DNA of 19,487 nucleotides from a virus. The stretch is from UHGV virus genome UHGV-1272094; one strand, 5' to 3'. The stretch's first letter is position 1, and every line of letters starts with the position of its first letter. Both the position numbers and the translations under genes were made by a program. This document shows positions 2,226-19,487 of this stretch, in pieces. The notes under the pieces were generated by a model that did no database searches, was not told the origin of the DNA, and saw nothing but the letters and a program-made list of their open reading frames with translations.

Positions 2226-2273
2226 TCAATGCGTCCCCCTGTAGGGCAGTACCACAGGAGGAATAACGGAAAA

Positions 2274-3236: not shown

Positions 3237-3262
3237 AGGAGCCTCCTATGTCATTAATTGCG

Positions 3263-3655
3263 CTAGAGCGCGCGATATGGAATTTGAAGATTAAGCTGGA
3301 ACCAGCCATTCTTTTCGCCAACGGCTATTGAGGAAACAGCCTGGTAACTGAGACGATCGTCATCCTGAAACTCAAACAGTTCCCGCAATTTATCGGCTGT
3401 CTCAGTAATGAGTTTTGAACCAGAACCTGCGGGGACAAATAACTGAATAATGATTATCCCCGTGCGATAAACAATCGGCCCCGCGCCAATTTCATTAACT
3501 CCAGCCTGCCCGGGAATATTACTTAACCGCGCCCAGATTAACTTACCGGAAGGATCGAACGTTGGCGCGTTCGGATACAATACGTCTTTTCCATCAATAA
3601 TCGTCTGTGCCGTCATTCTGGAAATAACCGTATTTCTGATTTCAGTAAACGTCAT
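3263..3655 (-). CDS. Tail terminator / tail component protein (lambda U position)
   Basis: 130-aa ORF. Its ATG overlaps the upstream gene stop as ATGA at 3652-3655. Position is immediately upstream of the major tail gene. Confidence 0.55.
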   Translation of the reverse strand: MTFTEIRNTVISRMTAQTIIDGKDVLYPNAPTFDPSGKLIWARLSNIPGQAGVNEIGAGPIVYRTGIIIIQLFVPAGSGSKLITETADKLRELFEFQDDDRLSYQAVSSIAVGEKNGWFQLNLQIPYRAL

Positions 3656-4032
3656 TTGTAAGCCTGTAAAACACCATGAAAAGCGTTGGCATACACGCCA
3701 GTTGGCGCTTGTTGTGAATGACCGTTTTCAAGAGCCTCTGCATAAGGAAGGTTATTCTGGATATAAATAACTCCGTAATTTGCAGCTTTCGAAATAACCC
3801 CGATCCCACGCTGAACAGCAATCGTACCGTTCGGATCCACGTTATCAGATATACCAAAATCGGGATGCTGTAACGACACCAGGTTGTTATTTCTGAAACG
3901 TCCGGTATCAACCGGAGCAGCAATATCAATAGCAGTAAGAATCTGAATAGCGATGTAGCGAATCTTCAGCCCTACATCTTCCTCAATCATCCCGGCAAAT
4001 ATTGACGGTTCTATATCCCATGCCTTTGCCAT
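3652..4032 (-). CDS. Tail completion protein, HK97 gp10-like
   Basis: 126-aa ORF containing ...AAPVDTGRFRNN..., which I recall as characteristic of the HK97 gp10 family. Located in the head-tail joining block. Confidence 0.55.
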   Translation of the reverse strand: MAKAWDIEPSIFAGMIEEDVGLKIRYIAIQILTAIDIAAPVDTGRFRNNNLVSLQHPDFGISDNVDPNGTIAVQRGIGVISKAANYGVIYIQNNLPYAEALENGHSQQAPTGVYANAFHGVLQAYK

Positions 4033-4416
4033 TTACGCTCTCCTTAACTGGATAGAGTAAACTGATGCGGAAGGATCTACACTTGCTGTAATTACCTCGT
4101 ATCGTTGTAACTGCCTTGATACAGGATCATAAATCTCAATAATATGGTCGACAGCTGGTTTATCCGTAACCTCGCATACCAGAGCGGTTAATTTAAGGTC
4201 ACCATGCAAAATATTAATCCCATCAATTCTGCCCAGCTTATAACGTGTCAACACGCCTCGCCCGGTATAGATTGCGGTGGATTCGCCGCCAGTTTCCGTC
4301 ACAGGATCCCAGTGCCGGTGCGTAACGTAAGAACCAGAAAAATCACTCACGGCGTCCGCTAAATCCTCATCAAAAGCAGCGGCAACCTCTGACTGAATCT
4401 CTTCACGAAGCCCCAT
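4033..4416 (-). CDS. Head closure / head-tail joining protein
   Basis: 127-aa ORF. TAATG overlap with the upstream gene at 4416. Position matches the SPP1/HK97-type connector set. Confidence 0.5.
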   Translation of the reverse strand: MGLREEIQSEVAAAFDEDLADAVSDFSGSYVTHRHWDPVTETGGESTAIYTGRGVLTRYKLGRIDGINILHGDLKLTALVCEVTDKPAVDHIIEIYDPVSRQLQRYEVITASVDPSASVYSIQLRRA

Positions 4417-4811
4417 TATCCCCCCCTCACAACCCTGACTTGTGAGCGACTAAGTCCGTACGGTTTCAGCAGTGCTATCGCAAGCTGTAAATCGGGTTCA
4501 AGCAATGCAGTGCTGTTTGCTGGCAACTCAGAAAATGATTTCGATACACTGACCCCGTCAGCCGACACGGCTTTACTGATAACAACGCCAGAATCATTTT
4601 TCTGCTGAAACAACTTACCGAATGAGGCAATTCTGGCTGCATATGCTCCCGCAAGTTTTACCTCTTCCGGAATACGGGATGGGTTAATTTTCAGGTTGAA
4701 GCCATTAAGCCAGGCATTAGCCATTAAAACAGCTTTATTTTTAGCGTTCTCACTCGTCCAGGCGTTCCCAAACGCATTATCAACGTCATCACAGGTCACG
4801 TAAGTGATCAT
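4416..4811 (-). CDS. Head-tail connector (gp6-like adaptor) protein
   Basis: 131-aa ORF, first gene of the connector block downstream of the capsid gene. ATG at 4809-4811. Confidence 0.5.
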   Translation of the reverse strand: MITYVTCDDVDNAFGNAWTSENAKNKAVLMANAWLNGFNLKINPSRIPEEVKLAGAYAARIASFGKLFQQKNDSGVVISKAVSADGVSVSKSFSELPANSTALLEPDLQLAIALLKPYGLSRSQVRVVRGG

Positions 4812-4814
4812 GTG

Positions 4815-4991
4815 TTACTCCTGAGTTTTCCAGCCCATAGCCTTCCAGTTGTCAACTTCATCAGGATGAACATTAGCGATAGTTGGTGCGCCGGGAAACA
4901 TCTGATAATCGGTCACCATAACCACTAACTCAATTTGCGTTTTTTGTGCGGCTTCACGCTGTGCTCTTTGCTCTTTAGTTAATCCGGCCAT
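4815..4991 (-). CDS. Small hypothetical protein (58 aa) between capsid and connector genes
   Basis: Not in the ORF track. ATG at 4989-4991, stop TAA at 4815-4817, no internal stops. Translation MAGLTKEQRAQREAAQKTQIELVVMVTDYQMFPGAPTIANVHPDEVDNWKAMGWKTQE. GGGGGG lies 3 nt upstream of the ATG. Confidence 0.4.
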   Translation of the reverse strand: MAGLTKEQRAQREAAQKTQIELVVMVTDYQMFPGAPTIANVHPDEVDNWKAMGWKTQE

Positions 4992-5000
4992 ATGCCCCCC

Positions 5001-5023
5001 ATTAAAAATGGGGCCGAAGCCCC
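5001..5023 (-). terminator. Terminator/attenuator hairpin just downstream of the major capsid gene
   Basis: Minus-strand GGGGC-UUCG-GCCCC stem-loop (plus 5010-5023) followed by AUUUUUAA. Lies 11 nt after the capsid stop at 5034. Confidence 0.5.
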
Positions 5024-5033
5024 GTTTGAATGT

Positions 5034-6173
5034 TTAACCAAGAATCAGACAACCATGTGCCGGCTTCACTGATGAAACACCCCATGCCAGTCCAACTTCA
5101 TAGCGCACCTGGCGATACTGACGATACAGTGCAATCTGGAACGTAATCCCTGAAATCGGGTCCGTAACATTCATTACATCATCAGCATTATCGCCACCTT
5201 CCGGCATTGCCGGAGTACGGGATGCCAGCAGAAACGCGTTGCGATCAAACGCCATATTTGCCGTAAAGGCCCCAACAACTGTGATGGCAGTATCATCGGC
5301 CAGATCCTGACGCAGTCCGGGCGCTGCAAGAGTAATCAGATTGCTGGTCGCTGCTGCCACAACATACTGATTCGGATTACCAGCGAACGTAACAATCTGA
5401 CCTGCAGAAATACTCCCCGAACCAGTATCAATGGAAATAAGAACATCGCCTTCTTTTTTCTCTCCATTCACGAGATAACCAGTTGCAGCAACCTTTGGCG
5501 CTCGTTTCACACCTGCCGAACTGTGAATATTGAATCCCTCCAGACGCCCCAACACGCCCTCACGCAGTAGCTGTTCAGTGCCGGATTCATTCACTTTAAA
5601 CAATACAGACTGTTTTCCGCGCAAATTAGCAATGGCAGTGGAGCCAAGCACCATCTGCAGATCGGTTGTCGGTGCGCCGTTATCCTCCAGAACCTGACGA
5701 GCCAGAGCAGCATCAGAAAGATCATCTTTAACACCAAACGGCGTTGTCCCTGCGGTTCCCACGGCGCGGGAAGCACCGAAATACAACGCACCAAGATCAG
5801 CCTCAACCTCGTTTGCAAGGGCGCGAAAAGCCTGCTTGAACTGATCAGCCAGAATGGTGTTGTAAGTCCCTGAAGGGCCAAGAGCCAGTTGTTCTTCACC
5901 ATTCCATTTAACCGGTGCCATTTTGGATTTAGTAATTTTTACATCAACAGTGCCAATATTTTGATCACCGGTATTCGGAGCTGACGGCCCCGGTACGATA
6001 TCTTCGGTTTTCGCCTCAGGCGCAACTGGCGCGGTTACCGTCTGATCTTTTGCTGCGGCGTCAGCTTTTACGTTTTTTGCTACCGCAGGGATAAAACCTA
6101 CCTGCTCACGGGATACAACATCCAGGGCGGTATAAATAGTCGGGATCAACCCGGTCAGGGTATTTCCAGCCAT
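5034..6173 (-). CDS. Major capsid protein (P22 coat-like by recollection)
   Basis: ATG at 6171-6173 with AAGGA upstream, 379 aa, MAGNTLTGLIPTIYTALDVVSREQ... The longer ORF-track start at 6266 is a TTG. Position after scaffold; C-terminal region resembles P22 gp5-type coat proteins from memory. Confidence 0.75.
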   Translation of the reverse strand: MAGNTLTGLIPTIYTALDVVSREQVGFIPAVAKNVKADAAAKDQTVTAPVAPEAKTEDIVPGPSAPNTGDQNIGTVDVKITKSKMAPVKWNGEEQLALGPSGTYNTILADQFKQAFRALANEVEADLGALYFGASRAVGTAGTTPFGVKDDLSDAALARQVLEDNGAPTTDLQMVLGSTAIANLRGKQSVLFKVNESGTEQLLREGVLGRLEGFNIHSSAGVKRAPKVAATGYLVNGEKKEGDVLISIDTGSGSISAGQIVTFAGNPNQYVVAAATSNLITLAAPGLRQDLADDTAITVVGAFTANMAFDRNAFLLASRTPAMPEGGDNADDVMNVTDPISGITFQIALYRQYRQVRYEVGLAWGVSSVKPAHGCLILG

Positions 6174-6271
6174 AATTAAATATTCCTTAAAAATTTGCGT
6201 AATTGTGAATAGATGGAGTAATGAGCTATCCAGCCCTGACACCAGCTCCCATCCGGAAGCTGACAAATGTG

Positions 6272-7036
6272 TTAATCAACGATTGTGATACCGTCTTTCA
6301 ATGCGTTTTGCTTACCTGCAACATCCAGTGCATCAAAAGCAGAGCGTTTCATCGTTTTCTGACCAATATCATGCTGTGTCGGACGGGAGCCGCCGCCATT
6401 GTTGCCACTGGCTTTCAGGATGTAGTCTTTCTGAGGGTAATTTTCGACAAGGAACTCCAGCGCCTCATCAAACTGCGCCAGTTCGCCAGGCTTCGCGCGG
6501 GAATAAATTTTGTTGCCGGAAGCGTCATAAGCAACGATCTTCCCTTCTTCCACTTTGAATGCCTGCCCGAAGCGGGCTTGTAATAAATCTGCCGGGATCG
6601 CAATTTTATCGGCAATATATTTTGAACCCGCAAAACTACCGCCAATCATAGAATCGTAAAGCTGCGTCTCCAGCATCTGAGAGCGTTGCTTTTCTTCATC
6701 TAATTGCTGCTGAAAATTTTTCGTAATTTCTGCCTTAACCTGGTCAACCTGTCCCGCATCGATCAGCTTTTTCTGGTCGATTTTTAACAGCATTTCCAGT
6801 GCCTCGATCGCCTTCTTCGGGTCTTCGATAGCGGCAAACTTAGCCAGTTTTTCCTCTGCAGCTTCTTTAGCCAGGCGATGATTTTTTGCCTCGCCATTAA
6901 GCTCTGTAATTTTTTTTATCGCCAGCGGTGCATCGAAGCCGATTTCTTTACCATCGTCGTGCACATAAACTGGCAGGCCAGCAGTATCAATTTCTGCGTA
7001 TTGTTTTCCGTTAATCTCGACCGTTTTCAGTTTCAT
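6272..7036 (-). CDS. Scaffolding protein, putative
   Basis: ATG at 7034-7036 (MKLKTVEINGKQYAEID...), 254 aa, charged helical region (...EAAEEKLAKFAAIEDPKKAIEALEMLLKIDQKKLIDAG...). Located between the MuF-like gene and the capsid gene. The ORF-track GTG extension to 7108 runs through the upstream hairpin. Confidence 0.6.
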   Translation of the reverse strand: MKLKTVEINGKQYAEIDTAGLPVYVHDDGKEIGFDAPLAIKKITELNGEAKNHRLAKEAAEEKLAKFAAIEDPKKAIEALEMLLKIDQKKLIDAGQVDQVKAEITKNFQQQLDEEKQRSQMLETQLYDSMIGGSFAGSKYIADKIAIPADLLQARFGQAFKVEEGKIVAYDASGNKIYSRAKPGELAQFDEALEFLVENYPQKDYILKASGNNGGGSRPTQHDIGQKTMKRSAFDALDVAGKQNALKDGITIVD

Positions 7037-7096
7037 ATTAGTACCTGGTTTAAGTCTTCCGACAGTTACGCTGCTCACCATCCGGATCGCAGCAAT

Positions 7097-7121
7097 AAAA
7101 AAGGCCACCCGAAGGTAGCCT
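7097..7121 (-). terminator. Terminator-like hairpin upstream of the scaffold gene
   Basis: Stem aggccacc/ggtagcct (7102-7109 and 7114-7121) with one mismatch and a cgaa loop. On the minus strand it is followed by TTTTTTATT. Confidence 0.3.
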
Positions 7122-7140
7122 GTTGTAATAAATGATTTAT

Positions 7141-8256
7141 TTAAATCCCTGCTTTTCTGAATACCTGTGCATCACGCTCACGGAGTTGCTTCAGCGTCAG
7201 CCATTCGCCTTTATCGGTGTAAAATTCATCTGGCGACATACCGCCATCCCGAATCAGCTTTGCCCGGGTTTCCCCCACAATCTGTTTTTGTCTGGTGTAA
7301 GGCTGACGCAAAAACCATTCCCTGTAGGTTGTATCTCCGGCCACCACGCCATCCATGCTGGCCCGCTCAGCCGGGGAAATATCACGAACATCAATACCCA
7401 GTTCCTTCGCTGATTTCAGAATGAACGTTTCCGTTGAGCGGCAGCAGAAATGAATTTTTCCCGGCCCATGCAAATAAGGCACACTGTGACCTACAGGTTT
7501 ATTATCCAGCGTATATTTGAGGCGATCCCTGATTCGACATTGTGGCGTAGTACGATTATCAAGCGTTGATAACCATTGCTTACCCTTAATCAAATCATTA
7601 TTCGCGCTGGCAAAACTCTCACGGGCAGTAGCAGCAAGATGTCCAACCGCTGTTTTTGCAATGCTGGCCGCATTAGCCCGGCTCATCTGCAATGCACCAT
7701 CCTGAAATCCCTTGCTGACATGTCCCCGAATTTTTCTTGCGATCTGCTCATTGGTATCCCCCAGCAAAAAACCCTGACGCACCGTATTTGTTATGCGTCT
7801 GAGCCGATCCGCCTCAAGATCCAAGGCCCACTCACTGAGCAGTCGTCCCTGGAATGGTCGCGCCATTGCAGCGGCGTAAAGTGCATCAGAAGATATACCA
7901 ACCAGAGGGTGAACATCAGCAACAAAATCAGGTAGCAGAGAATCAAACAGACTTAACTGATAACCAGCCTCATAAATTGCCAGCTCGTTCAGCTCTCCGG
8001 AGAGACTGGTAAACATGCTGTTAATAGCAGCGCGGTTAACCTCTCTGACACTCGCCAGAAGTGACTCCAGGCGCGTAACGGTAAAACTACCAGGATCGAG
8101 GCTGTCCAGTGCTACCAGCAGGCGAGCTGTAAGCTCCGCATCGCTGTCATTCAGTATTTTCACCATTCTGGCAGCCACACCAGTGCTATAGCGGGATATC
8201 CAGACTGCATGAGCAATTGATTCATCACGCAGCCGTTCATTCACGGTTTGCATCAT
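7141..8256 (-). CDS. Head morphogenesis protein (Mu F / SPP1 gp7-like minor head protein)
   Basis: 371-aa ORF immediately after the portal gene, overlapping its 3' end by 20 nt. The SPP1-like order terS-terL-portal-gp7-scaffold-MCP supports the call. Confidence 0.6.
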   Translation of the reverse strand: MMQTVNERLRDESIAHAVWISRYSTGVAARMVKILNDSDAELTARLLVALDSLDPGSFTVTRLESLLASVREVNRAAINSMFTSLSGELNELAIYEAGYQLSLFDSLLPDFVADVHPLVGISSDALYAAAMARPFQGRLLSEWALDLEADRLRRITNTVRQGFLLGDTNEQIARKIRGHVSKGFQDGALQMSRANAASIAKTAVGHLAATARESFASANNDLIKGKQWLSTLDNRTTPQCRIRDRLKYTLDNKPVGHSVPYLHGPGKIHFCCRSTETFILKSAKELGIDVRDISPAERASMDGVVAGDTTYREWFLRQPYTRQKQIVGETRAKLIRDGGMSPDEFYTDKGEWLTLKQLRERDAQVFRKAGI

Positions 8257-9643
8257 TGATTTCCATCAACATTACACTCTGATTTTTTAATTCATCGATC
8301 ACATCCTCTGGACGGGAATCCTGATCGATAAATTTCAACGCCTGCAACACCCGAACCGCATCAATCTGACGTATATCACCGCCCTGACGCAATGACTGAA
8401 CAGCCAGCGCGGAGGATGAGTCAAACACCTGGGCAGATACATCCAGTTCAGTGCGCACATCCACATTGCCACCGCAACTCTCTCCGCTCCATTCCGCCAT
8501 TATCTGGAGAATATTATCGAGGGCATCTTCGAGGGAGTTCGCCATTGTATAAAGCGGCGAGTGTTCCTGCATCCGCTCTTCATTAGTCTGATCAACAGAT
8601 TTGGTGGATGTATTTTCAGCCCGCAGAAGTTTAGCGCCGGCATGACGCATCTGATTTTCCAGCTTCTCAAGTGATGTTTCGCCAGATTCTATCGCTGCGC
8701 CACTATGTTCAACATATTCGAGGCCATTTTTTGTTCTGTCCTCAAAAATCGTAGCCGTGGATGCACCAACCGTCAGTTCTTCATTCCTGTCCAGCCCGTA
8801 GGCCACCAGCAATGGAACGCGGGCAACATGAAGAATATTGTCCTGCTCGCTCTGGCTTTGCCAGTGCTTGATATTCAGCAAGCCAAGATTAAGCAATGGC
8901 GGTGTACCACGCATAAACCCTGTTTTCTTCGTATACAGTGTTACCAGAGGAATATCATCACGGCTGGTATTCCATGACTCATGAAGCATCCAGACAGATT
9001 CGCCATTAGTACCTTCGCTGCGTCGATAAATTTCTACTCGACGGGGCATAATATGGCGGATCTGCTCCACCTTCTTCTGCCCGAAATCATCACCATCAAT
9101 AATGATGACCTCTTTTATACGCAAATCAGTGAGAACAACTTTCCCTTTTTCAACTTTCGATTTCCATCCAATAACCTGGCGTGGATTCAGCATCGTAACG
9201 TACGGGCGACCACCGGCCGCGTTTTCATCGGCTTTTGTCCGAATCTCGTTCATATCCGTTCGTGGATAGTCCACCAGCGCATGTGCCACACCATACTGAA
9301 ATGCGAGACTGAAAAATTGCTGCGCCCACACATCCAGTCGGCTCCCCTCCATGTCGATATTTTCTGCATATTCCCTGATTTTTTCCGGCGTTTCCTCACT
9401 CAATACTGTCGGCTCTGCAAATATGCGCCCAATATTTTGTTTGATGCTTTCTTCATACACAGGAAGTAACGTAGCCACAGACAGGCGTTTTTTATAAGCG
9501 TCTTCATCTTCATTAGGCCATTTGGGGAGATAATTTTCCCCCTGCCTGCGCATTTCAAGCGTACCGCCCATCAATGCGTCGTTAATATCCCACGCCTCCA
9601 GCATATCGTTATAGTCGAGGTTGGGTGTTGATATATCAGCCAT
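8237..9643 (-). CDS. Portal protein
   Basis: 468-aa ORF starting 2 nt after the terL stop (ATG 9641-9643, MADISTPNLDYNDMLEAWD...). Size and position are those of a portal gene. Confidence 0.75.
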   Translation of the reverse strand: MADISTPNLDYNDMLEAWDINDALMGGTLEMRRQGENYLPKWPNEDEDAYKKRLSVATLLPVYEESIKQNIGRIFAEPTVLSEETPEKIREYAENIDMEGSRLDVWAQQFFSLAFQYGVAHALVDYPRTDMNEIRTKADENAAGGRPYVTMLNPRQVIGWKSKVEKGKVVLTDLRIKEVIIIDGDDFGQKKVEQIRHIMPRRVEIYRRSEGTNGESVWMLHESWNTSRDDIPLVTLYTKKTGFMRGTPPLLNLGLLNIKHWQSQSEQDNILHVARVPLLVAYGLDRNEELTVGASTATIFEDRTKNGLEYVEHSGAAIESGETSLEKLENQMRHAGAKLLRAENTSTKSVDQTNEERMQEHSPLYTMANSLEDALDNILQIMAEWSGESCGGNVDVRTELDVSAQVFDSSSALAVQSLRQGGDIRQIDAVRVLQALKFIDQDSRPEDVIDELKNQSVMLMEINDANRE

Positions 9644-9645
9644 AA

Positions 9646-10947
9646 TTAAATCCGAAGTGATGTGACTCTTCCGGTCGGTTTGACAATAGGGAATTGCTTA
9701 ACGATGAAATAACCTCCGGCATCATTCGGGTGATCATTGCCAGATTTTTTATCAGGCTCCCCCTTATCATCCCAGACCTGTTGCTCCAGAGATTCGGCAT
9801 ATACCGGACAACGCTTCACATTAACTTTATAGCGACGCTCACCATTGGCATTGCAGAACATTGCATTCATTGAGTTAACGCGATCTTTTACTGGCGGGTT
9901 CGAGCTGTTCACCACAACGTTAAAACCTGCCTGCTTAAGCTGGGCTATATCCGTCGTACTTGCGTTACTTGATTTTCTGGAATCTCCGGAAGCATCTGGA
10001 TAAATATAAATCTCCCTCACTTTCCGGTAATCATGCCCGTCATACAGCCAGAAGCGTTCTTTAATGAGGCGGATCATATCCGGCGTATCGTAGGCATTGA
10101 TGATTTCAGTTACCGCACATGGAAGCCCCAAACGCAGCACATGGACGATTCCCGCCATCTTTCCAACGTTAAAATCCATCCCAATATAAATCGGCTCCCC
10201 TGGCTGCTCCACTTCTTCGCAATTATTCAGTTTCCGGTCAAACTGATGGTAAACAGTACCACTTGTCAGGTTAGTAAACCGTCCTAGAAGATAGGCTTTA
10301 ATCAGCTCTGGAGGGTATGATTCAAGAAGTGAAGGAATGTAATCTGCTGGCAGGTTCTTTTCATTATCGAAAGTAGATGCCTGCACCAGACCATACAGTG
10401 AGGCCAGCTCTGTTTTTTCACGCACGGCTTTAACAAACTGCTCGTAGACAAATTTGAATCCTTCCGGCGTGGTTGTAACGTCAATACCGTTGCGAAGTCC
10501 ATCAATCTTATAACGCATACGCGCAATTATCTTGCGCCACGCCGTTCTGGCTTTTTCCTTCGGCAAAATGTCCAGTTCATCCACCAGCGCATTACCAATT
10601 TTGAAACCGACGATCGTTTGTGGCTTCTCCATCGATCTGCAGATAGTGGTTCCCCGATACTGGCGTCCGTAATAAAAGTGAACCTCTTTATTTCCCTCAT
10701 TAATTTTTACGTTCAATCCCCAGTCAGCAGCAACTTCTTCCACTGTAGGGTAAAAAATATCGCGAATTTGGGGATACGTTGGCGCAAAATATCCCTGATT
10801 TATACCTGGATGCTCCCAAATCCCCTTGCATATGCCGCCACACCCAACCCATGTTTTGCCCGAGCCAAAACCAGCAATATAGGCTTTAAATTTATGGGGC
10901 ATTGAAAGAAATCGCGCCTGAGGCACATTAAGCGTCGGAGAGATCAT
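9646..10947 (-). CDS. Terminase large subunit
   Basis: Walker A motif in ...KAYIAGFGSGKTWVGCGG... Preferred ATG at 10945-10947 with AAGGAG 8 nt upstream, 433 aa. Overlaps the terS stop by 20 nt. Confidence 0.9.
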   Translation of the reverse strand: MISPTLNVPQARFLSMPHKFKAYIAGFGSGKTWVGCGGICKGIWEHPGINQGYFAPTYPQIRDIFYPTVEEVAADWGLNVKINEGNKEVHFYYGRQYRGTTICRSMEKPQTIVGFKIGNALVDELDILPKEKARTAWRKIIARMRYKIDGLRNGIDVTTTPEGFKFVYEQFVKAVREKTELASLYGLVQASTFDNEKNLPADYIPSLLESYPPELIKAYLLGRFTNLTSGTVYHQFDRKLNNCEEVEQPGEPIYIGMDFNVGKMAGIVHVLRLGLPCAVTEIINAYDTPDMIRLIKERFWLYDGHDYRKVREIYIYPDASGDSRKSSNASTTDIAQLKQAGFNVVVNSSNPPVKDRVNSMNAMFCNANGERRYKVNVKRCPVYAESLEQQVWDDKGEPDKKSGNDHPNDAGGYFIVKQFPIVKPTGRVTSLRI

Positions 10948-12022
10948 CTTCATCACTCCTTAATCTGGCATCAACCACATTAATATTGATCGCCACAGGC
11001 TGGGGATGTTCATTATCCTCCACCGTTTCGATCTCTTTGCGCAGCTTCTGGTTCTCTATTCTGCGCCGTTCAATTTCCAGTTCCTGTAGCCGCTTATCTG
11101 CACATAATGCCCCGCCAGCAGAAAGCAAACGCAACAATTCACGCCGGGCGGCAGCCTTATCCTCCAGCAGGATCTCAACACCGTATTTTCCGAGCTTTGA
11201 CCCTGCATATAATTGCCGCGCATCCCCATCAAGCAGTGTGGTATCAGCCATATAAAGCTGTCCTGTTCCCTCACCGCAGCACTTCGGGCAATCAGGATTG
11301 GGTATGGCGTTATCAACAAAGCCGAGGCCTCCATATTCCGGCTCGGGTTTACCATCTCTGGAGGCCTGTGCCGCAGCCTTATCGAATTCTGCAATATCAC
11401 GCCACTGGTAGAGATGATTCTCGCCCCAGCAATAACGGCAGTTAACACGGCGAAATTGTGCCAACTGATTGGGGTCGGCCTGGACAATGGCCATCAACTG
11501 GCTCACCAGTAAATCCAGGTCTGCGGTATAGCGTTTCTGGTACTGATTGCGGAAGTAGCTGATAGCACGATAAACCCTGGCATTTCTAAGCATACGGCTG
11601 GCGTTGCTGTTAGCTGTCGCACCTTGCCCCTCATAACCAGCCAGTCGGTATGCCTCTGTCGGCTTTTTCCCCTGAGCAACCAACATGGCGAATTTTGCCT
11701 GCTGGTCAGAAATACCGAATTCATCGGGGCAGAACGAAATTTCTTCCGTGTCCCCCTCAATCAGGAGTGCATCGGATACAGCCTTTTTTTTCTGAGATTT
11801 TCCGTTCTGCCTTTGCGCAGTCTGCGCAGTTTTTTTTCGCGCACTTTTTTGCGCAGTTTTGCGCATTTCTTTCTGCGCATTTTTCGGAGTTTTTTTGATG
11901 TAACGACGGGCTGTTGCGTAGTTCAGTCCCCTTGCTTCACACCATGCCACCGGAGATATACCGGAGCGGGTGTATTCAGCAATATACTCCTGCTGCAACG
12001 CCCCCCAGTCCGGTCTGCTCAT
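10928..12022 (-). CDS. Terminase small subunit, unusually long (364 aa) with extra domains
   Basis: Central segment ...QQAKFAMLVAQGKKPTEAYRLAGYEGQGATANSNASRMLRNARVYRAI... matches the conserved terS core as I recall it. N-terminal HTH-like region, Lys-rich linker, and C-terminal Cys-rich segments (CRYCW...CPKCCGEG) plus coiled coil. ATG 12020-12022 with AGGA upstream. Confidence 0.8.
   Translation of the reverse strand: MSRPDWGALQQEYIAEYTRSGISPVAWCEARGLNYATARRYIKKTPKNAQKEMRKTAQKSARKKTAQTAQRQNGKSQKKKAVSDALLIEGDTEEISFCPDEFGISDQQAKFAMLVAQGKKPTEAYRLAGYEGQGATANSNASRMLRNARVYRAISYFRNQYQKRYTADLDLLVSQLMAIVQADPNQLAQFRRVNCRYCWGENHLYQWRDIAEFDKAAAQASRDGKPEPEYGGLGFVDNAIPNPDCPKCCGEGTGQLYMADTTLLDGDARQLYAGSKLGKYGVEILLEDKAAARRELLRLLSAGGALCADKRLQELEIERRRIENQKLRKEIETVEDNEHPQPVAININVVDARLRSDEDDLSDA
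11814..11879. repeat. Array of six palindromic TGCGCA hexamers (one CGCGCA variant) separated by T-tracts, inside terS
   Basis: Copies start at 11814, 11823, 11838 (variant), 11850, 11860 and 11874, spaced 9-15 bp apart and each followed by T runs. The array encodes the Lys-rich linker of terS. Confidence 0.8.
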
Positions 12023-12025
12023 CAG

Positions 12026-12277
12026 TTAGTCCTGATTTTTATCCACCCTGAGTAGTTCGCGCAGAGCAAAGGCATCCCCTTTTCTGGCAAGCTTAAACAA
12101 TGCCGCTCGTAACTCGGCTTCACCTTTCGCTCTGCCCTTACGGATGGCCGCATAAAAATCTGTCATTGCTTCCCGATTTTCTTTCAGTCGGTTCAGATCA
12201 ACATCCAGAACGTCAGCGATTTGTTGTGCAGTCATCCGGCACGCTGCCAGAGACTCGACTTTCGAATACGGAATCAT
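12026..12277 (-). CDS. Small HTH-like protein of unknown function upstream of terS
   Basis: 83-aa ORF MIPYSKVESLAACRMTAQQIADVLDVDLNRLKENREAMTDFYAAIRKGRAKGEAEL... Stop is 3 nt before the terS ATG. Its 5' end overlaps the 3' end of the GT-like gene. Confidence 0.5.
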   Translation of the reverse strand: MIPYSKVESLAACRMTAQQIADVLDVDLNRLKENREAMTDFYAAIRKGRAKGEAELRAALFKLARKGDAFALRELLRVDKNQD

Positions 12278-13169
12278 TTGTCACCCCCATTGATATGCAG
12301 GGTGTCTTCTTCCTGTATTTTTCGTGAAGGATTTTTACTGCAGCGTTGTTCCAGGTGACCTGATGGTGAATGCGTTTATGGCTGGCACCCATCAGTGAGA
12401 TTTTTACGCACGACGGCGAATACATGACGGAGTAAAAACTTTTAACGTAGGTTCCGGAATCCAGATACAGCTCGGTCATTCCGCCGCTGTTTTTCTGCGT
12501 CTGTTTCTGCCCTAACTGGACAGCACCGATCGTCATAAACAATTCACCACAGCGACCGAGATTCGTGTACGTATTCACATCCTCGTTAATGCGCCCCATG
12601 AATGAGAACGGTCGATCAACCGAACAGATAAAGCTGTTCATTGCCTTGCGTTTCACCCACGAAGCATGGCCGCCATTGTCACCAAGAAAATCCCCGCCCT
12701 GCGACATAGCGATGGAAAGCGCGGGTATTGATTCGTAATACGCCAGCATTTCAGAAAGGATCGCATCCAGTTTCCTTATCGGGAAATAGGCCTGGTCATA
12801 GTTGCGATCCACCCGAAACTGGAACTCGTGATAATCATCATCGAGCTGAATGAAGTATTTACACCCGACCAGTTTTGCCAGGTCGAAACAGGCATTACGG
12901 GCGTAAAAAATTGAGCGGCGATCACCAAAATTATCGGCTTCGTCAAAACGACTGGCAATATCGGCTTTGGAAAATACCAGCACCTGTTCACCAAATTCAG
13001 CCATGTACTGATGCCGTGTCTTATCTTCATCATCAACAACGATAAAAATTTTCCCGGTATAGCCAGCACGACGCAACGTCCGGTAAGTCAGAACTTTGTC
13101 CGGTCGCCCGTGAGTCAGAATAAAGGCGCAAAAATCATCACGCATATTCCTCCTCCTCCTCCCCGCCAT
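12213..13169 (-). CDS. GT-A fold glycosyltransferase-like protein
   Basis: N-terminus AFILTHGRPDKVLTYRTLRRAGYTGKIFIVVDDED resembles the first strand/helix/strand of GT-A (GT2-like) enzymes. A DxD-type motif follows at ...YFIQLDDDYHE... Alternative ATG at 13145 gives 310 aa, with GGAGGAGGAGG just upstream. Confidence 0.55.
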   Translation of the reverse strand: MAGRRRRNMRDDFCAFILTHGRPDKVLTYRTLRRAGYTGKIFIVVDDEDKTRHQYMAEFGEQVLVFSKADIASRFDEADNFGDRRSIFYARNACFDLAKLVGCKYFIQLDDDYHEFQFRVDRNYDQAYFPIRKLDAILSEMLAYYESIPALSIAMSQGGDFLGDNGGHASWVKRKAMNSFICSVDRPFSFMGRINEDVNTYTNLGRCGELFMTIGAVQLGQKQTQKNSGGMTELYLDSGTYVKSFYSVMYSPSCVKISLMGASHKRIHHQVTWNNAAVKILHEKYRKKTPCISMGVTNDSVFESRVSGSVPDDCTTNR

Positions 13170-13932
13170 GCATGATCTCCACCATGCGCTGCGTCATTCG
13201 GACAAATCCATTTTCAATAGCCTGCTGATAATCAATGATCACCAGCGCCGACTCCTCGAAAAGGCACTGAATTTCAGCGGGGGCATGAGCGTAATAGTCC
13301 GCAATTCTGCTGAAATTAAACACTGTGTGACGTTCTGCCGCACACAGGAGGAATTTCTCAATATCAGGATCAAGGGACGCCGAACGTATCCGGCTGATCA
13401 GCTCCTGAGTTTTCGTATCGTCGTACAGTTCACTGATATCCGGTTTACCGCCCGACGGCTCATAAACAGGCGTATCAATTTTCGTCGTATACGGCTCCTC
13501 CTCATTTCCTGTACCGGGCAAAACATCCGTCAACAGTTCATCAATTTCTGTCGGGATGAAGCCTGTCAGGGAGACATCAAAATCAGCATTGATTAGGTCC
13601 GACAGCTCCATCCGCAACAGATCTTCATCCCAGCCAGCATTCATCGGCAGGCGATTATCTGCCAGGCGGTACGCCTTTTTCTGCTCATCCGTCAGGCCAG
13701 ACAGAACAATGACCGGAACAGAATCCATTTTGAGCATTTCAGCCGCCATAACACGACCGTGACCCGCAATAATTTCGCCCTTTTCGTCAATCAGCACCGG
13801 ATTAGTCCAGCCGAATTGCTTAATACTTTCTACCAGTTGTGCCACCTGCTCAGGGCTGTGCGTCCTGGCGTTGTGCGCATACGGTGACAATTCTTGTAAT
13901 GGGCGATAGACTATCTTTAATTTCTCGCTCAT
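13138..13932 (-). CDS. ParB-like nuclease domain (ParB/Srx fold) protein
   Basis: MSEKLKIVYRPLQELSPYAHNARTHSPEQVAQLVESIKQFGWTNPVLIDEKGEIIAGHGRVMAA... is a typical ParB N-terminal domain with the GxGR box. Acidic C-terminal tail GGEEEEEYA. ATG at 13930-13932. Confidence 0.8.
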   Translation of the reverse strand: MSEKLKIVYRPLQELSPYAHNARTHSPEQVAQLVESIKQFGWTNPVLIDEKGEIIAGHGRVMAAEMLKMDSVPVIVLSGLTDEQKKAYRLADNRLPMNAGWDEDLLRMELSDLINADFDVSLTGFIPTEIDELLTDVLPGTGNEEEPYTTKIDTPVYEPSGGKPDISELYDDTKTQELISRIRSASLDPDIEKFLLCAAERHTVFNFSRIADYYAHAPAEIQCLFEESALVIIDYQQAIENGFVRMTQRMVEIMHGGEEEEEYA

Positions 13933-13954
13933 ACAGCCTTGCTTTATGAATAAA

Positions 13955-13983
13955 ACGCACCCCAGCAGCCAGTGCTACTGGGG
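13955..13983 (-). terminator. Weak terminator-like hairpin downstream of trkG
   Basis: Stem ccccag/ctgggg (13960-13965 and 13978-13983) with an inner agc/gct helix. On the minus strand a UUUUAUU tract follows after a 4-nt spacer. Confidence 0.3.
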
Positions 13984-14069
13984 ACGGAGGGGTTGCTGGT
14001 AAAGTTAGGTATTGGATCAATGAGTGAGTCAACATAATATTAAACTCACAATTATAAATCAGCCATATA

Positions 14070-15545
14070 TTAGGAGCGCCAAAAAAAACCTGAAAACAAT
14101 ATAATAACAGGATAAATTTCAAGGCGACCAAGAATCATAGCTATGCACATTAAACATTTTGCAATGTCATTAAGCACTCCGAATGACGATGCAGTAGCCC
14201 CAAAACCTAATCCCATATTATTAATACATGCAGCCACTGTTGCAAATGATGTAAGAAAATCATATCCCATACCATTTAACACCAGTATAAAAAACACCGT
14301 GAAGAGAGTATAAAGAAAAAAGAAACTCCATACAGACCTCATTACACGATCTGTAACTATCTTCCCTCCTACATTTACACTCAACAACGCTCTGGGATGA
14401 GAAAGCTGATTTATCTCGTGTTTGCTTTGTTTGAAAAGTATAAGAAATCGAAGTGACTTAATTCCACCACAAGTTGAACCTATACATCCCCCAAAGAAAC
14501 TTGACAACAGCAAAAACACTATCGTGTGCGTGGGCCAACTTGCATAATCCTGCGTAGCTAAACCATTATCAGTGAGCATGGAGCTGGCAAGAAAAAACGA
14601 ATGAATAAAACTTCCATGCAAGTCATACATACCTATATGCCAGACCTGGAAAGAGGTAACAATGATCACCCCTAAGGCTATTAACAGAAAGAAACGAAGT
14701 TCAATATCTCTGATTAAAGGTTTTATCGTTTTCCTGCTAATAACAATATACCAAAGAGTGAAGTTGAAAGCCGATAGCAGGGAAAAAGAACGAGCCACCA
14801 GCTCAACCAAATAGTTATTAAAATATCCGATACTCTCGCTATGAGTTGAGAAACCACCAAGCGAAACTGTGGAAATCCCGTGACAAATAGCATCAAACAA
14901 AGGCATTCCTGCAAGTCTATAACAGACAATACAAGCAATACCTAATAAAGAATAAGTTATCCACAGTGTCCGTGACGTATCGGCCAGGCGGGGAGTGAGT
15001 TTGTCATCCTTAAATGGCCCCGGCATTTCTGACTGATAAAGCTTTGCACCACCAATACCCAATAATGGCAATACAGCAACCGCCAGAACAATAACTCCTA
15101 AACCACCTATAAAATTTAACTGTGACCGATAGTACAAATATGCCCGAGGTAATGAACTAACATCATCAATTACAGTTGCTCCTGTTGTTGTTATTCCAGA
15201 AACCCCTTCAAACAGAGCATCAATGAACGTTAAATTAAGTTCTGAGTCAATCCATAAAGGGAATGCACTAATAACAGAAAACAAAATCCAAAACATTACA
15301 ATTATAATAAACCCATCACGGGTACGTAATTGAATGCCAGATTTCTTAGTTGTATACCACGCTCCGCCACCAATGCAAAAAAATATAACGAAAGTTATAA
15401 AGAAAACGAACAGGCTTTTTTCTTTATAAAACAATGCTACAACCATTGGTGGCAACATTGAAAGACTATAGAGCCAAACCAGGAACCCACACATATGAGT
15501 AACAACTCTTACATGAGATGTATTCATATCTAAATATTCTTTCAA
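14070..15545 (-). CDS. trkG: TrkH/TrkG-family K+ uptake membrane protein (prophage cargo)
   Basis: Polytopic membrane protein with TrkH-family motifs (...FEGVSGITTTGATV..., GGxGG-type loops). Matches my recollection of E. coli TrkG, which is encoded in the Rac prophage. TTG start at 15545 has AAGGTGG 6 nt upstream; the ATG at 15527 gives 485 aa (MNTSHVRVV...). The gene is visibly AT-rich compared with its neighbours. Confidence 0.85.
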   Translation of the reverse strand: MKEYLDMNTSHVRVVTHMCGFLVWLYSLSMLPPMVVALFYKEKSLFVFFITFVIFFCIGGGAWYTTKKSGIQLRTRDGFIIIVMFWILFSVISAFPLWIDSELNLTFIDALFEGVSGITTTGATVIDDVSSLPRAYLYYRSQLNFIGGLGVIVLAVAVLPLLGIGGAKLYQSEMPGPFKDDKLTPRLADTSRTLWITYSLLGIACIVCYRLAGMPLFDAICHGISTVSLGGFSTHSESIGYFNNYLVELVARSFSLLSAFNFTLWYIVISRKTIKPLIRDIELRFFLLIALGVIIVTSFQVWHIGMYDLHGSFIHSFFLASSMLTDNGLATQDYASWPTHTIVFLLLSSFFGGCIGSTCGGIKSLRFLILFKQSKHEINQLSHPRALLSVNVGGKIVTDRVMRSVWSFFFLYTLFTVFFILVLNGMGYDFLTSFATVAACINNMGLGFGATASSFGVLNDIAKCLMCIAMILGRLEIYPVIILFSGFFWRS

Positions 15546-15664
15546 TTATAACCACCTTGCTGCAATATTATGATTATACTGTATAAAATTTAACTCCTCT
15601 TAGATCTTACTTCACTGTTCCTTATGAAACAATCATCAAAATGAATCATATTGTAGTTAAGATT

Positions 15665-16129
15665 TTACTTTAAACACTGCTCGGTTATGTATTGCTGAGC
15701 ACCTTCAAGTTGGGCCTGCATCATTACCAGTCGTTCCCGGAGGGTGAAATAATCCCGTTCAGCGGTGTCTGCCAGTCGGGGGGAGGCTGCATTATCCACG
15801 CCGGAGGCGGTGGTGGCTTCACGCACTGACTGACAGACTGCTTTGATGTGCAACCGACGACGACCAGCGGCAACATCATCACGCAGAACATCATTTTCAG
15901 CTTTCGCATCAGCTAACTCCTTCGTGTATTTTGCATCGAGCGCAGCAACATCACGCTGACGCATCTGCATGTCAGTAATTGCCGCGTTCGCCAGCTTCAG
16001 TTCTCTGGCATTTTTGTCGCGCTGTTCTTTGTAGGCGATGGCGTTATCACGGTAATGATTAACACCCCATGACAGGCAGACGACGATGCAGATAACCAGA
16101 GCGGAGATAATCGCGGTTACTCTGTTCAT
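15665..16129 (-). CDS. Rz: Rz i-spanin
   Basis: [80 protein letters not shown]... is near-identical to lambda Rz as I recall it. Its ATG overlaps the endolysin stop as ATGA at 16126-16129. Confidence 0.9.
15724..15909 (-). CDS. Rz1: Rz1 o-spanin lipoprotein, embedded in Rz in the +1 frame
   Basis: [56 protein letters not shown]..., with lipobox VVGC and a Pro-rich tail, lying entirely inside Rz. Matches lambda Rz1 from memory. Confidence 0.85.
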
Positions 16130-16623
16130 TGCTGACCCCACAAACAGATTTCACGCTCAATCTCACGACGAGTCATGAGACCTTTCCATTGCTTACCGCC
16201 AGCATATGTCCAGCGACGTAGCTGATCACATGCGCCTTTGATATCGCCCTGGTTTATTTTGCGAAGAAGCGTCGATGTTCTGAAATTGCCAGCACCCACG
16301 TTGTAAACGAATGAGTAAAGAGCGCCGCGCGTTGTTTCCGGTATATCGACTTTGATGTACGGGTTAATTTGTCTGGCGACCGTGGCAAGGTCTTTATTCA
16401 AGAGTGTTTTGCATTCTGCTTTGGTATACGTTTTACCGAGCATGATGTCTTTTCCTGTATGCCCGTGACATACAGTCCATACACCAACAATATCTTTGTA
16501 TGGTATGTAGCTGACACCTTCCAGACCATCGTTACCACTTGGGCCAGTGATTAACACTGATGCTATAGCAATTGCTCCGCCACCAATAGCAGCAGCAACG
16601 ACTTTTCGTAATGATGGAGGCAT
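16126..16623 (-). CDS. R: SAR endolysin (lysozyme, phage P21 R-like)
   Basis: N-terminal signal-anchor-release segment [30 protein letters not shown]..., then a T4-lysozyme-like core. Closely resembles P21 R as I remember it. TAATG overlap with the holin stop at 16623. Confidence 0.85.
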
Positions 16624-16838
16624 TATTCACCTCTCGCAGCCTTGCGCTTATCTTCTTTAATCTTGAAATAAAGGTTTGTCAGGTACGTCAGCAGGCCAAA
16701 TACCAGACTACCCAGCACACCGATTGCAGCCCACTGTGACGGAGTTACTCTATCGAGCAACTGTAAAAACCAGTAGCCAGCACTGCCTGCGGAGGTGCCG
16801 TAGGCAATGCCTGTTGAAATTTTGTCCATGGATTTCAT
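16623..16838 (-). CDS. S: Pinholin (P21 S-like) with dual-start motif
   Basis: [71 protein letters not shown]. ATGs at 16836-16838 (MKSMDK) and 16827-16829 (MDK), with GGAGGTGAGG upstream. The ORF-track 5' extension to 16895 is not supported. Confidence 0.85.
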
Positions 16839-16940
16839 AGCCTCACCTCCGCACGGAACGGATGGCATAGTTATTATGTGTAGGCTTTCAGACACATCAA
16901 TCAGAGCCTTAATTGATATATATGCTGGAGACGATGCAAT

Positions 16941-17089: not shown

Positions 17090-17485
17090 CTAACCTCGCA
17101 TGTCAAAGCCAGATTTCTGAAAATCTCTGTAGACTTCCGGATTGTTGAAGGCCGGAAATTTGGCTTTATGAGCTGCGGACTTTATCGCTTCGCAATAGGC
17201 TTTATCACCGTTACTGGTAGATATTTTTAACGCCGTGCCATCCTGAGAGAATTCCATATGCAACCTGCATTTTTTCCCTTTCCAGTTATGCGGCTCATCA
17301 AGTTTGGCATTAATTGCAGCTCTGATTCCCCGCGCTTGCGCCCCCCATTCATCCTGATCATCCCAGCGTCCTGAACTGCAACTACCTGTAGCAGTAGTTT
17401 TGTGGCAATCTGAAGGGTGTAAAGGTGTGCATCCCGCAACAAAACCGACCCAAAAAGTCAACATAACGATTTTCTTTAATCCCAC
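17090..17485 (-). CDS. Lipoprotein with TolA C-terminal (domain III)-like module, copy 1
   Basis: GTG start at 17483-17485 with GAGGAG 6 nt upstream. Signal peptide MGLKKIVMLTFWVGFVAGC with lipobox VAGC. C-terminal ...GIRAAINAKLDEPHNWKGKKCRLHMEFSQDGTALKISTSNGDKAYCEAIKSAAHKAKFPAFNNPEVYRDFQKSGFDM aligns with copy 2 and with the TolA C-terminal domain as I recall it. Confidence 0.7.
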   Translation of the reverse strand: MGLKKIVMLTFWVGFVAGCTPLHPSDCHKTTATGSCSSGRWDDQDEWGAQARGIRAAINAKLDEPHNWKGKKCRLHMEFSQDGTALKISTSNGDKAYCEAIKSAAHKAKFPAFNNPEVYRDFQKSGFDMRG

Positions 17486-17635: not shown

Positions 17636-18064
17636 TCAGGGTTTAAAATCCAGCACCCCATTTTGAAATACTTTATATACTTCCGGCGAAGGGGGGGCAG
17701 GTATATCAGCATTCTTTATCGCATTCATCGCTTCACGACATAAATCGAGGTCTCCACTTTCTCTTTTAACCTCCAGTAGAAGGCCATTCGGGGCCATATG
17801 CATTCTCAGTGTACACTCTTTTCCTGAATACTTACTCGCATCCCCGAACTGTTTTTCGATGGCGCTCTTGATTTGATGGGCATACAGACGGATATCCTCA
17901 CTAACATCAGAAGTACGTTCAGATGAACTCACATACTGTGTCTCTATTGCTTTATCGGAGTAATATGATGTACGGTCATGATAATTTGTCGATACAGCAT
18001 CAGTGCACCCGATAATAATCCCACTAATAATCAACGTAAGAATTGATGCGCTACGAAAACCCAT
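17636..18064 (-). CDS. Lipoprotein with TolA C-terminal (domain III)-like module, copy 2
   Basis: ATG at 18062-18064 with GAGGA 5 nt upstream. Signal peptide MGFRSASILTLIISGIIIGC with lipobox IIGC. C-terminal ...YAHQIKSAIEKQFGDASKYSGKECTLRMHMAPNGLLLEVKRESGDLDLCREAMNAIKNADIPAPPSPEVYKVFQNGVLDFKP resembles TolA domain III (recalled ...QIKSAIESKFYDASSYAGKTCTLRIKLAPDGMLLDIKPEGGDPALCQAALAAAKLAKIPKPPSQAVYEVFKNAPLDFKP). Confidence 0.75.
   Translation of the reverse strand: MGFRSASILTLIISGIIIGCTDAVSTNYHDRTSYYSDKAIETQYVSSSERTSDVSEDIRLYAHQIKSAIEKQFGDASKYSGKECTLRMHMAPNGLLLEVKRESGDLDLCREAMNAIKNADIPAPPSPEVYKVFQNGVLDFKP
17942..18036. repeat. Left copy of a perfect inverted repeat of at least 95 bp, inside the 5' coding region of lipoprotein 2
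   Basis: Plus 17942-18036 equals the reverse complement of 19393-19487 at every position checked by hand. Identity stops abruptly at 18037/19392. Confidence 0.9.
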
Positions 18065-18123: not shown

Positions 18124-18651
18124 ACAGCGAATCAGATCAAATAAAACGCACATTTGTTAACATTTACACAAAGTCTGCGTGGGATATTCTGAAAGAATAT
18201 CCATAATGTGGAGAGAATCTATTGAAGTGCATGGTGCCGGGTGCCTCCCGGTGAACAAAATGTTCGTGATACCTGTCGGCGACAGAAAAGGTTAATGGTA
18301 TCACCCCACCGCACAGGGGGATTCACCATGCAGGAGTTTTCTTAGCAAACTCACTGCGCGCCCGGCAACTCCCAACCACATAAAATGCGGAGTTTGTGGT
18401 ATTTATGCATATAACTCGCAGGAATTATCTTAAAAAACTGATGTCGATCCGGATTAAAAAGAAGCAGGTCATCATCAGATGACTGGAAAAAAGGAAAAAA
18501 AAAATACTCATCATACAGTTTTGATTGCAGGGATGAGCCTGCTATGCACAATATGCAGAATATAAGCAAGATAAAAATATGCAGGCATATTATTTCGGAT
18601 TTTGTTATTAACACAACCTTTTTAATAATCATTTGGCATACAATAAACCAG

Positions 18652-19108: not shown

Positions 19109-19426
19109 TCAAGCCATTTTCTCAGCAAATGATTCACGCATGGGAATATATAGGGCATACTCAGCAACAGCTAACCAATTAGCAATCCGTTTTTCGCATG
19201 TGCTAAAACACCACTCTGGGTGTCCATCATTTAGCAATTCAGCCATTTTGCGCTTAGTCATCCCCCGCCCTTCATAGCGTTGCCGGAGAATGCAAATCAA
19301 TCCTGGATGCTCTGCCAGCACCTCACTTATGACTCGATCAATACATAACGCCTCTGCATCAGTACAATGCGCCAGCCAGCTCTTTTGCTTGCCGTTGATT
19401 ATTAGTGGGATTATTATCGGGTGCAC
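19109..19426 (-). CDS. Late antiterminator Q-like protein, 5' end possibly truncated or chimeric
   Basis: ...INGKQKSWLAHCTDAEALCIDRVISEVLAEHPGLICILRQRYEGRGMTKRKMAELLNDGHPEWCFSTCEKRIANWLAVAEYAL... has the layout I recall for the short Q family (as in quuD). Its first 11 codons (MHPIIIPLIIN) lie inside the inverted repeat and mirror the lipoprotein signal peptide. Location upstream of the lysis genes fits. Confidence 0.5.
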   Translation of the reverse strand: MHPIIIPLIINGKQKSWLAHCTDAEALCIDRVISEVLAEHPGLICILRQRYEGRGMTKRKMAELLNDGHPEWCFSTCEKRIANWLAVAEYALYIPMRESFAEKMA

Positions 19427-19487
19427 TGATGCTGTATCGACAAATTATCATGACCGTACATCATATTACTCCGATAAAGCAATAGAG
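19393..19487. repeat. Right copy of the inverted repeat, truncated by the window end and overlapping the Q-like ORF start
   Basis: Reverse complement of 17942-18036. On the plus strand it encodes ...PLIISGIIIGCTDAVSTNYHDRTSYYSDKAIE, the same lipoprotein signal-peptide and linker residues. Extent beyond 19487 is unknown. Confidence 0.9.

Follow-up and report, generated by a model that had tools for sequence, protein, structure and literature searches.

The closest described counterpart of the locus analysed here is trkG (b1363) of the Rac prophage of E. coli K-12, and much about it is already published: that Rac carries it, that it is low in G+C, that it has a promoter of its own and is repressed by H-NS, as well as the transport properties of its product. 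The K-12 TrkG protein supports TrkA-dependent K+ uptake, it needs Na+ for K+ uptake and also conducts Na+, and its gene is H-NS-repressed and AT-rich, as opposed to trkH of the core genome (PMC9898762). All the functional evidence concerns this K-12 allele, with Gly at position 246, and the copy described here carries Arg at this position. The comparison is made with the late region encoded in a stretch of 19,487 nucleotides of virus genome UHGV-1272094, referred to in its entirety as the window. The two loci have in common the gene itself, its neighbours (an Rz remnant upstream and ynaK downstream in K-12), the spacer and the Shine-Dalgarno (SD) sequence. They differ in that K-12 Rac is deleted for the part corresponding to positions 2116-13678 of the window and is missing Q, the holin and lysozyme genes and the late promoter region, whereas the late region of the window is undeleted and carries the G246R substitution.

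Three more systems invite comparison. One is bor of lambda and phage 21, the classic moron downstream of Rz, which occupies the same slot, directly behind the Rz stop codon and ahead of the packaging genes, and which is likewise an accessory gene of the lysogenic-conversion type. However, bor, which encodes a small lipoprotein, runs on the opposite strand, while the 1.5-kb trkG encodes a transporter and shares the strand of the late operon. Another is the TrkH protein, represented by the structures of V. parahaemolyticus TrkH (VpTrkH; 3PJZ and 4J9U) and by E. coli TrkH, which belong to the same fold family, align with TrkG end to end and possess the same four pore loops with filter glycines, but are only about 41% identical to it (for the two structures, E = 1e-120 over residues 13-491). 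The third is presented by the chromosomal genes of the TrkG clade, which share with the window gene the clade, a TTG start preceded by an SD sequence and the length (491 aa in those annotated from the TTG), but are found outside phage late operons, in varied neighbourhoods, and range in G+C content from about 43% to 59%. A literature search for trkG described as a moron found no match in the sense of phage cargo.

The late region and its trkG gene

All genes of the window are on the minus strand, and together they form an undeleted, Rac-type version of a lambdoid prophage's late region, which reads Q, TolA_C genes, holin, lysozyme, Rz/Rz1, trkG, ParB, glycosyltransferase, terminase, head and tail. 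The features are as follows.

19109-19426, minus strand: Q-type antiterminator gene, 3' part (DUF1133)
17636-18064 and 17090-17485, minus strand: two ORFs with a TolA C-terminal domain
16623-16895, minus strand: P21-type holin gene
16126-16623, minus strand: lysozyme gene
15665-16141, minus strand: Rz i-spanin gene (Pfam Phage_lysis PF03245, E = 4e-53)
15724-15909, minus strand: Rz1 o-spanin gene, embedded within Rz
14070-15545, minus strand: trkG coding sequence, 491 aa if read from the TTG, its most likely start (Pfam TrkH and K-12 match)
13138-13932, minus strand: ParB/Srx-like gene (Pfam ParB_N; full-length ynaK)
12213-13169, minus strand: TET-associated-type glycosyltransferase gene
beyond the glycosyltransferase in gene order, minus strand: genes for the small and large terminase, portal, MuF-like protein, P22-type coat and tail tube

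Rz is the final gene of the lysis cassette and adjoins the cargo on its upstream side, and the ParB-like gene, the downstream neighbour of trkG, opens a ParB-TAGT-terS block. Searches for Rfam families and tRNAs found none in or beside the trkG interval. A perfect inverted copy of 17942-18036 occupies the final 95 nt of the window, which makes an assembly problem at that end likely.

The initial annotation had placed a full-length TrkH-family gene between Rz and the ParB-like gene and had matched this place to that of trkG in Rac, and both observations hold. The Pfam TrkH profile (PF02386) covers the whole ORF at E = 9.7e-145, aligning from position 3 to position 500 of its 502, and the neighbours of the ORF are the Rz (PF03245) and ParB_N genes listed above. 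The order is that of rzpR-trkG-ynaK in K-12 Rac, and positions 13679-16109 are 99.67% identical to that prophage over 2,431 nt, with 8 mismatches and 0 gaps. In terms of trkG itself, the window differs from K-12 by three nucleotides and one residue, G246R, 484 of the 485 residues encoded from the annotated ATG at 15527 being identical. All four pore-loop motifs (TTTGAT at 113-118, SLGGFST at 222-228, TDNGLAT at 319-325 and NNMGLGF at 436-442) are intact, each with its conserved filter glycine when aligned to VpTrkH. Asp327, also present in the window's TrkG, has been linked to the Na+ dependence of this protein (PMC9898762). Judging by these matches, the gene is the trkG of Rac, with the membrane subunit of a Trk system as its predicted product.

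Positions 13955-15601 are carried by 1,551 of 5,426 complete E. coli genomes, with identity of at least 99% in 1,517 records, and the ParB gene is present in 1,558 of these genomes, a nearly perfect co-occurrence of the two. Such near-fixation of trkG within its phage lineage is unusual for dispensable cargo.

The single residue that sets this copy apart is encoded by the following codon.

14790-14792, minus strand: codon 246 (in the 485-aa numbering), CGT (Arg) for GGT (Gly), changed at base 14792

Both K-12 and strain SE11 possess Gly here, and base 14792 is the sole difference from SE11 over 13955-15601. When a 61-mer around the codon was compared with E. coli records, all of the 1,534 matching records were one mismatch away and none was identical, and Gly occupies the position in 118 of 118 homologues of the TrkG clade. 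By alignment to VpTrkH, residue 246 falls into the D2M2 transmembrane helix, 22 residues past the first Gly of the second filter motif, a spacing that we take to be that of the gating-hinge glycine in K+ channels. On these alignments G246R is a private and non-conservative substitution, and it could represent a natural gating mutant. It may also be read as a sign that trkG is an inactive passenger here, drifting towards a pseudogene with a charge placed in a transmembrane helix, or else as a sequencing or assembly error. The absence of the window's 61-mer from the E. coli records, the invariance of the glycine, its place within D2M2 at the stated distance from the filter, and the likely assembly artefact at the window's end all speak for such a reading; on the other hand, the ORF is otherwise intact and a single base off SE11, and the aligned residue of V. 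parahaemolyticus TrkH is Val, so the glycine is not required family-wide, and overall we regard this reading, in its two versions together, as somewhat unlikely. The allele would be relevant only for studies of Trk gating.

Start codon, promoter region and transcription

The region between Rz and trkG contains the following elements.

15546-15664, minus strand: AT-rich upstream spacer with the trkG promoter region (from composition; inside a published promoter-active fragment)
15674-15645, minus strand: promoter-like TTTAAA-18-TATGAT, 9/12 matches, a candidate only (consensus scan)
15578-15573, minus strand: exact TATAAT, candidate -10 box (read from sequence)
15552-15558, minus strand: SD sequence AAGGTGG (read from sequence)
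15550-15545, minus strand: exact TATAAT that overlaps the TTG start and occupies the SD-to-start spacer

A strong SD sequence had been assigned to trkG, and AAGGTGG is real, but it is positioned for a TTG at 15545, which it precedes by 6 nt, and not for the annotated ATG at 15527, from which it is 24 nt away. The TTG and the purine-rich SD are invariant across five genera (the E. coli copy along with the E. fergusonii, Citrobacter, Pectobacterium and Pantoea homologues), and the position of the annotated ATG reads CTG, ATT or CTC in three of the four non-E. coli homologues. In K-12, ribosome profiling with tetracycline called the trkG start at the TTG at -18, to produce MKEYLDMNTSH, and a lacZ follow-up of this start left the question undecided (PMC4909307). 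Because the spacing of the SD, the conservation across the five genera and the K-12 ribosome profiling all point to the same codon, translation most likely begins at the TTG at 15545 (491 aa) and not at the ATG at 15527, even if RefSeq does not use this TTG.

As to the promoter, two TATAAT-like boxes had been noted upstream of the gene, and both hexamers do exist, but only one of them can be considered. The copy at 15550-15545 overlaps the start codon, and, with the start most likely at 15545, it is mere spacer between the SD and the TTG; it is also poorly conserved, as E. fergusonii alone keeps it out of the four other genera in the alignment, and thus it is not credible as a -10 box. The copy at 15578-15573 seems the most plausible -10 candidate, though its best -35 match is only 2/6; the AGTATAAT that includes it (15579-15573) is kept, together with the SD and the TTG, in the chromosomal E. 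fergusonii homologue, in which the surrounding spacer has diverged. Two exact TATAAT copies in a 137-nt spacer occur in 4.5% of shuffles, weakly above chance. A generic consensus promoter scan singled out no strong promoter, and, since it returned fewer sites than in shuffles and called neither TATAAT hexamer, such a scan cannot decide the promoter. A literature search for a mapped trkG transcription start found none that could be used, and a scan of the window sequence for terminator-like sites between Rz and trkG found none.

More direct evidence comes from K-12. A fragment equal to positions 16037-15528 of the window, from which the published DNA differs by two bases, drives luciferase expression, the trkG mRNA as measured by qRT-PCR is at about the level of the trkH mRNA even though it originates from a cryptic prophage, in which expression of the gene is documented by physiology as well, and it is increased in hns and hns stpA mutants, indicative of partial repression by H-NS (PMC9898762). 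Genomic SELEX has identified a constitutive site for the RpoD (sigma-70) holoenzyme at trkG, among very few such sites within prophages, with the conclusion by its authors that trkG came into Rac with its own promoter (PMC5811629). Over-expression of SlyA raises trkG 3.8-fold, trkG is part of two H-NS regulon sets, and SlyA relieves the repression of trkG by H-NS/StpA in K-12 (PMC5797941). For K-12 DNA two bases off the window fragment, published work (the luciferase fusion, the expression in a prophage that lacks Q and the RpoD SELEX site) establishes that trkG is transcribed independently of the late operon, and by analogy this may be expected of the window.

Limits of the cargo, the terminator-like hairpin downstream and the TrkG homologues

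The upstream limit of the cargo is suggested by the lysis cassette of phage 21 and those of numerous other lambdoid phages, in which homology runs up to the Rz stop codon and then ends. The downstream limit comes from relatives that are missing the gene. Searching IMG/VR with the ParB protein as query yielded 80 loci, 76 of which have trkG directly upstream of ParB. The remaining four (L093, L100, L105 and L110) possess the ParB-TAGT-terS block, at 97-98% protein identity, but not trkG, and in these the block follows a different lysis cassette (an M15 peptidase along with holins of families PF16931 and PF05449). At the DNA level, homology with the window resumes at 14002 in L093, L105 and L110, and at 13955 in L100. 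As homology with phage 21 ends at the Rz stop codon and homology with the trkG-less relatives resumes at 14002, the cargo would extend over about 14003-15664 (approximately 1.66 kb), coinciding with the compositional island described below. In the test of trkG as extra DNA, expected of a moron, no strict empty site, with this Rz joined to this ParB, was found in the 5,426 E. coli genomes using a chimeric Rz+ParB query, and the relatives without trkG have another lysis cassette. No meaningful flanking direct or inverted repeats, as signs of transposition, were found around trkG; the sole match is TTATAATTG, 9 nt long and found at either end of its CDS, probably due to chance in AT-rich DNA.

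Downstream of trkG, two elements need to be distinguished.

14003-14069, minus strand: AT-rich 3' tail of the cargo (the trkG-less relatives match only from 14002 on)
13950-13983, minus strand: intrinsic-terminator-like hairpin (stem 13983-13960, then TGCGTTTTAT; predicted by folding)

A weak hairpin had been reported downstream of the gene, and this description needs correction: the hairpin at 13983-13960, with a 10-bp stem that includes 7 G-C pairs and a 4-nt loop, is strong (-22.5 kcal/mol), and it is not the cargo's own. In L093, L100 and L110 the matching place carries a homologue of it that includes a T run, and, as it lies in DNA common to the trkG-less relatives, the hairpin belongs to the phage backbone, as an element preceding the ParB and packaging genes. 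The tail of the cargo contains only a small hairpin (14049-14023), which is weak (-8.1 kcal/mol) and has no T run. The cargo is, therefore, without its own terminator, even if a terminator-like site still follows trkG, and the trkG cassette is not fully self-contained, its terminator being shared with the backbone.

The closest TrkG homologues from outside E. coli are all chromosomal, and no phage setting was found among these five.

E. fergusonii, 79% identity, chromosomal: beside porin genes
Citrobacter, 77% identity, chromosomal: within a dynamin-like/KAP NTPase island
Pectobacterium, 75% identity, chromosomal: after ychF
Pantoea, 73% identity, chromosomal: near a TacA-type antitoxin and acetyltransferase gene pair
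Enterobacter, 70% identity, chromosomal: between ygiQ-like and multicopper-oxidase genes, near parC

Within the phage collection, high-identity trkG is limited to Rac-type records. This distribution looks like that of a mobile single-gene accessory locus of Enterobacterales that may have been captured once by a phage lineage. The remaining phage matches, which share 30-42% identity with TrkG, come from faecal contigs without annotation or from records that carry a host trkH. Records of trkG under the name 'Escherichia phage vB_EcoS-...' were rejected as proof of trkG in particles, as the paper in which they are named is concerned with phages located in clinical-isolate genomes.

A different role may also be considered for the gene, as a functional part of the lytic programme made from the Q-dependent late transcript, and not dispensable cargo, with the prophage expression being secondary; it could, for example, restore K+ or membrane potential late in infection, or tune holin timing. 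Indeed, trkG is found inside the late operon, between the lysis and the packaging genes and with no terminator after Rz, it accompanies the ParB module almost everywhere, in the E. coli genomes as well as in the IMG/VR loci, and it is highly conserved. However, a single prophage lineage that has spread recently could account for the conservation, the packaging module has close relatives without trkG, the homologues of the gene are chromosomal and its composition is foreign, and it has its own promoter and is both expressed and functional in K-12 Rac, which is incapable of lytic growth. With these observations considered, an essentially lytic role appears very improbable.

Base composition and the origin of trkG

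The case for trkG as horizontally acquired cargo is carried by the limits and the K-12 promoter and prophage expression data described above, along with its composition. The initial annotation had called the gene visibly more AT-rich than its neighbours, and computation of windowed G+C and codon usage bears this out. The G+C content of positions 13955-15601 is 37.8%. In 291 intervals of this size from the remainder of the window it averages 47.1%, with an sd of 2.2% and no value below 40.8%, which puts the trkG interval at z = -4.3, a clear departure from the composition of the flanks. The gene itself is at 38.1%, with GC3 of 32.3%, versus 46-52%, with GC3 of 40-55%, for ten flanking phage genes, and the 137-nt spacer upstream of it (15528-15664) is at 25.5%. 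The AT-rich island extends from about 14010 to about 15690, reaching slightly beyond position 15601, at which the feature had originally been ended. Synonymous codons are shifted as well. In trkG, 68% of codons end in A or T, versus 52% in the other phage genes, and TTA and ATA are each used 34.6 times per thousand codons, versus 5.9 and 9.5 times, respectively. TTA and TTG account for 32 of 65 Leu codons, versus 60 of 261 in the comparison genes, and ATA for 17 of 46 Ile codons, versus 29 of 181. H-NS and StpA bind AT-rich DNA, and trkG is AT-rich relative to its surroundings, as are H-NS-silenced xenogeneic genes, the repression itself having been shown in K-12. An explanation of the low G+C through the amino-acid make-up of a hydrophobic membrane protein, and not foreign origin, which can draw on the abundance of Phe, Ile and Leu in the TrkG protein and on its GC2 (39.9%), similar to that of the neighbours, deserves practically no credence, being refuted by the deficit that is greatest at third positions and extends to the non-coding spacer, with the synonymous choice for Leu and Ile codons also shifted and with an Enterobacter orthologue, the protein of which is 70% identical, having 57-59% G+C like its own flanks, so that amino-acid composition does not account for the dip.

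A sequence of events may be proposed for the window from the K-12 data and from the arrangement of the locus. In a lysogen, a sigma-70 promoter within the AT-rich spacer would give trkG its own transcription, with partial damping by H-NS/StpA, both as shown for K-12, and translation would begin at the TTG at 15545 via the AAGGTGG sequence, as suggested by ribosome profiling and conservation; the transcripts would presumably end at the backbone hairpin at 13983-13960. In lytic growth, since trkG is on the strand of the late operon, Q-modified polymerase on the late transcript would be expected to read through both trkG and this hairpin. The product would pair with the host TrkA for Na+-activated K+ uptake and some Na+ uptake, serving as a backup for TrkH, as has been shown for K-12 TrkG.

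In conclusion, it is highly probable that trkG is a cargo gene, or moron, of about 1.66 kb that originated from an enterobacterial chromosome and arrived with its translation signals and with at least the proximal promoter DNA. To what has been known from K-12, the present analysis adds the limits of the cargo, at about 14003-15664, the ownership of the terminator by the backbone, and comparative support for the TTG start. That trkG is kept for the phage's own benefit and not for that of the host alone, or that the G246R variant is a natural gating mutant, we consider quite improbable. Were the former true, bulk late synthesis of TrkG, from a gene that is nearly fixed, runs in the direction of the late operon and is not separated from Rz by a terminator, could reset the K+/Na+ balance or the membrane potential, and may in this way affect holin triggering or superinfection.

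Start codon and private allele of trkG

15543-15545, minus strand: probable TTG start of trkG (Shine-Dalgarno sequence, conservation, ribosome profiling)
15525-15527, minus strand: ATG start of trkG (RefSeq annotation, 485 aa)
14790-14792, minus strand: private TrkG substitution G246R (61-nt comparison to E. coli records, plus homologues)

As to the start of the potassium-transporter gene trkG, the Shine-Dalgarno sequence belongs to the TTG, located 18 nt upstream of the ATG annotated in RefSeq, this TTG is unchanged throughout the five genera of the sequence comparison, and ribosome profiling in E. coli K-12 called the start at the same codon. The RefSeq start is probably wrong. The coding sequence also carries a private allele: each of the 1,534 matching E. 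coli records differs from the window within the 61 nt around codon 246, and glycine occupies this position, inside the transmembrane helix D2M2, in all homologues compared (118/118). G246R could inactivate the protein, could alter its gating, or could reflect an error in sequencing.

Ends and distribution of the trkG cargo

15543-15551 and 14049-14057, minus strand: two copies of the 9-mer TTATAATTG

Apart from this 9-mer, no repeats flank the trkG cargo. One copy lies at the trkG start codon and the other 13 nt past the stop codon, a repetition that is probably due to chance in AT-rich DNA. In the E. coli genome collection, plasmid records account for 15 of the 1,559 places of trkG, and the alleles of 19 records are just 90-95% identical. 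Four related IMG/VR loci (L093, L100, L105, and L110; region at about 3100-4000) are without trkG and possess the same block as the window, of ParB-like, TET-associated glycosyltransferase and small terminase genes, with about 400 nt of small ORFs ahead of ParB. Their lysis cassette is unlike that of the window, with holins of the families PF16931 and PF05449, an M15 peptidase and a small ORF with a lipobox.

Neighboring genes and the window end

18175-18361, minus strand: STnc100 sRNA match (Rfam, 86.6 bits; gathering score 47)
17636-18064 and 17090-17485, minus strand: two tandem TolA C-terminal domain (TolA_C) ORFs (domain matches)
12213-13932, minus strand: overlapping ParB/Srx-like and TET-associated-type glycosyltransferase genes (PF20691 for the latter)

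The TolA_C ORFs, one also with a weak TonB_C match, may be additional cargo genes; they are placed between the antiterminator gene Q and the holin gene, and the late region of phage 21 encodes a TonB_C protein. The STnc100 match has Q upstream and these ORFs downstream. Homology to the SE11 prophage ends at 19402, inside Q (DUF1133), which is thus without its 5' half. The last 95 nt (19393-19487) are an inverted copy, at 100% identity, of 17942-18036, part of a TolA_C ORF; the cause is either misassembly at the contig end or an inversion breakpoint.

The ParB/Srx-like and glycosyltransferase ("GREB1-related" in RefSeq) genes immediately precede the small terminase gene and may form a DNA-modification or packaging-associated pair; no TET/JBP gene is found within the window. 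In the cryptic Rac prophage of K-12, precisely 2116-13678 of the window (11.56 kb) is deleted, from most of ynaK, the ParB-like gene, through the head genes. The K-12 alignment blocks on either side abut, with a 2-nt overlap, and K-12 ydaY is therefore a deletion-junction remnant.
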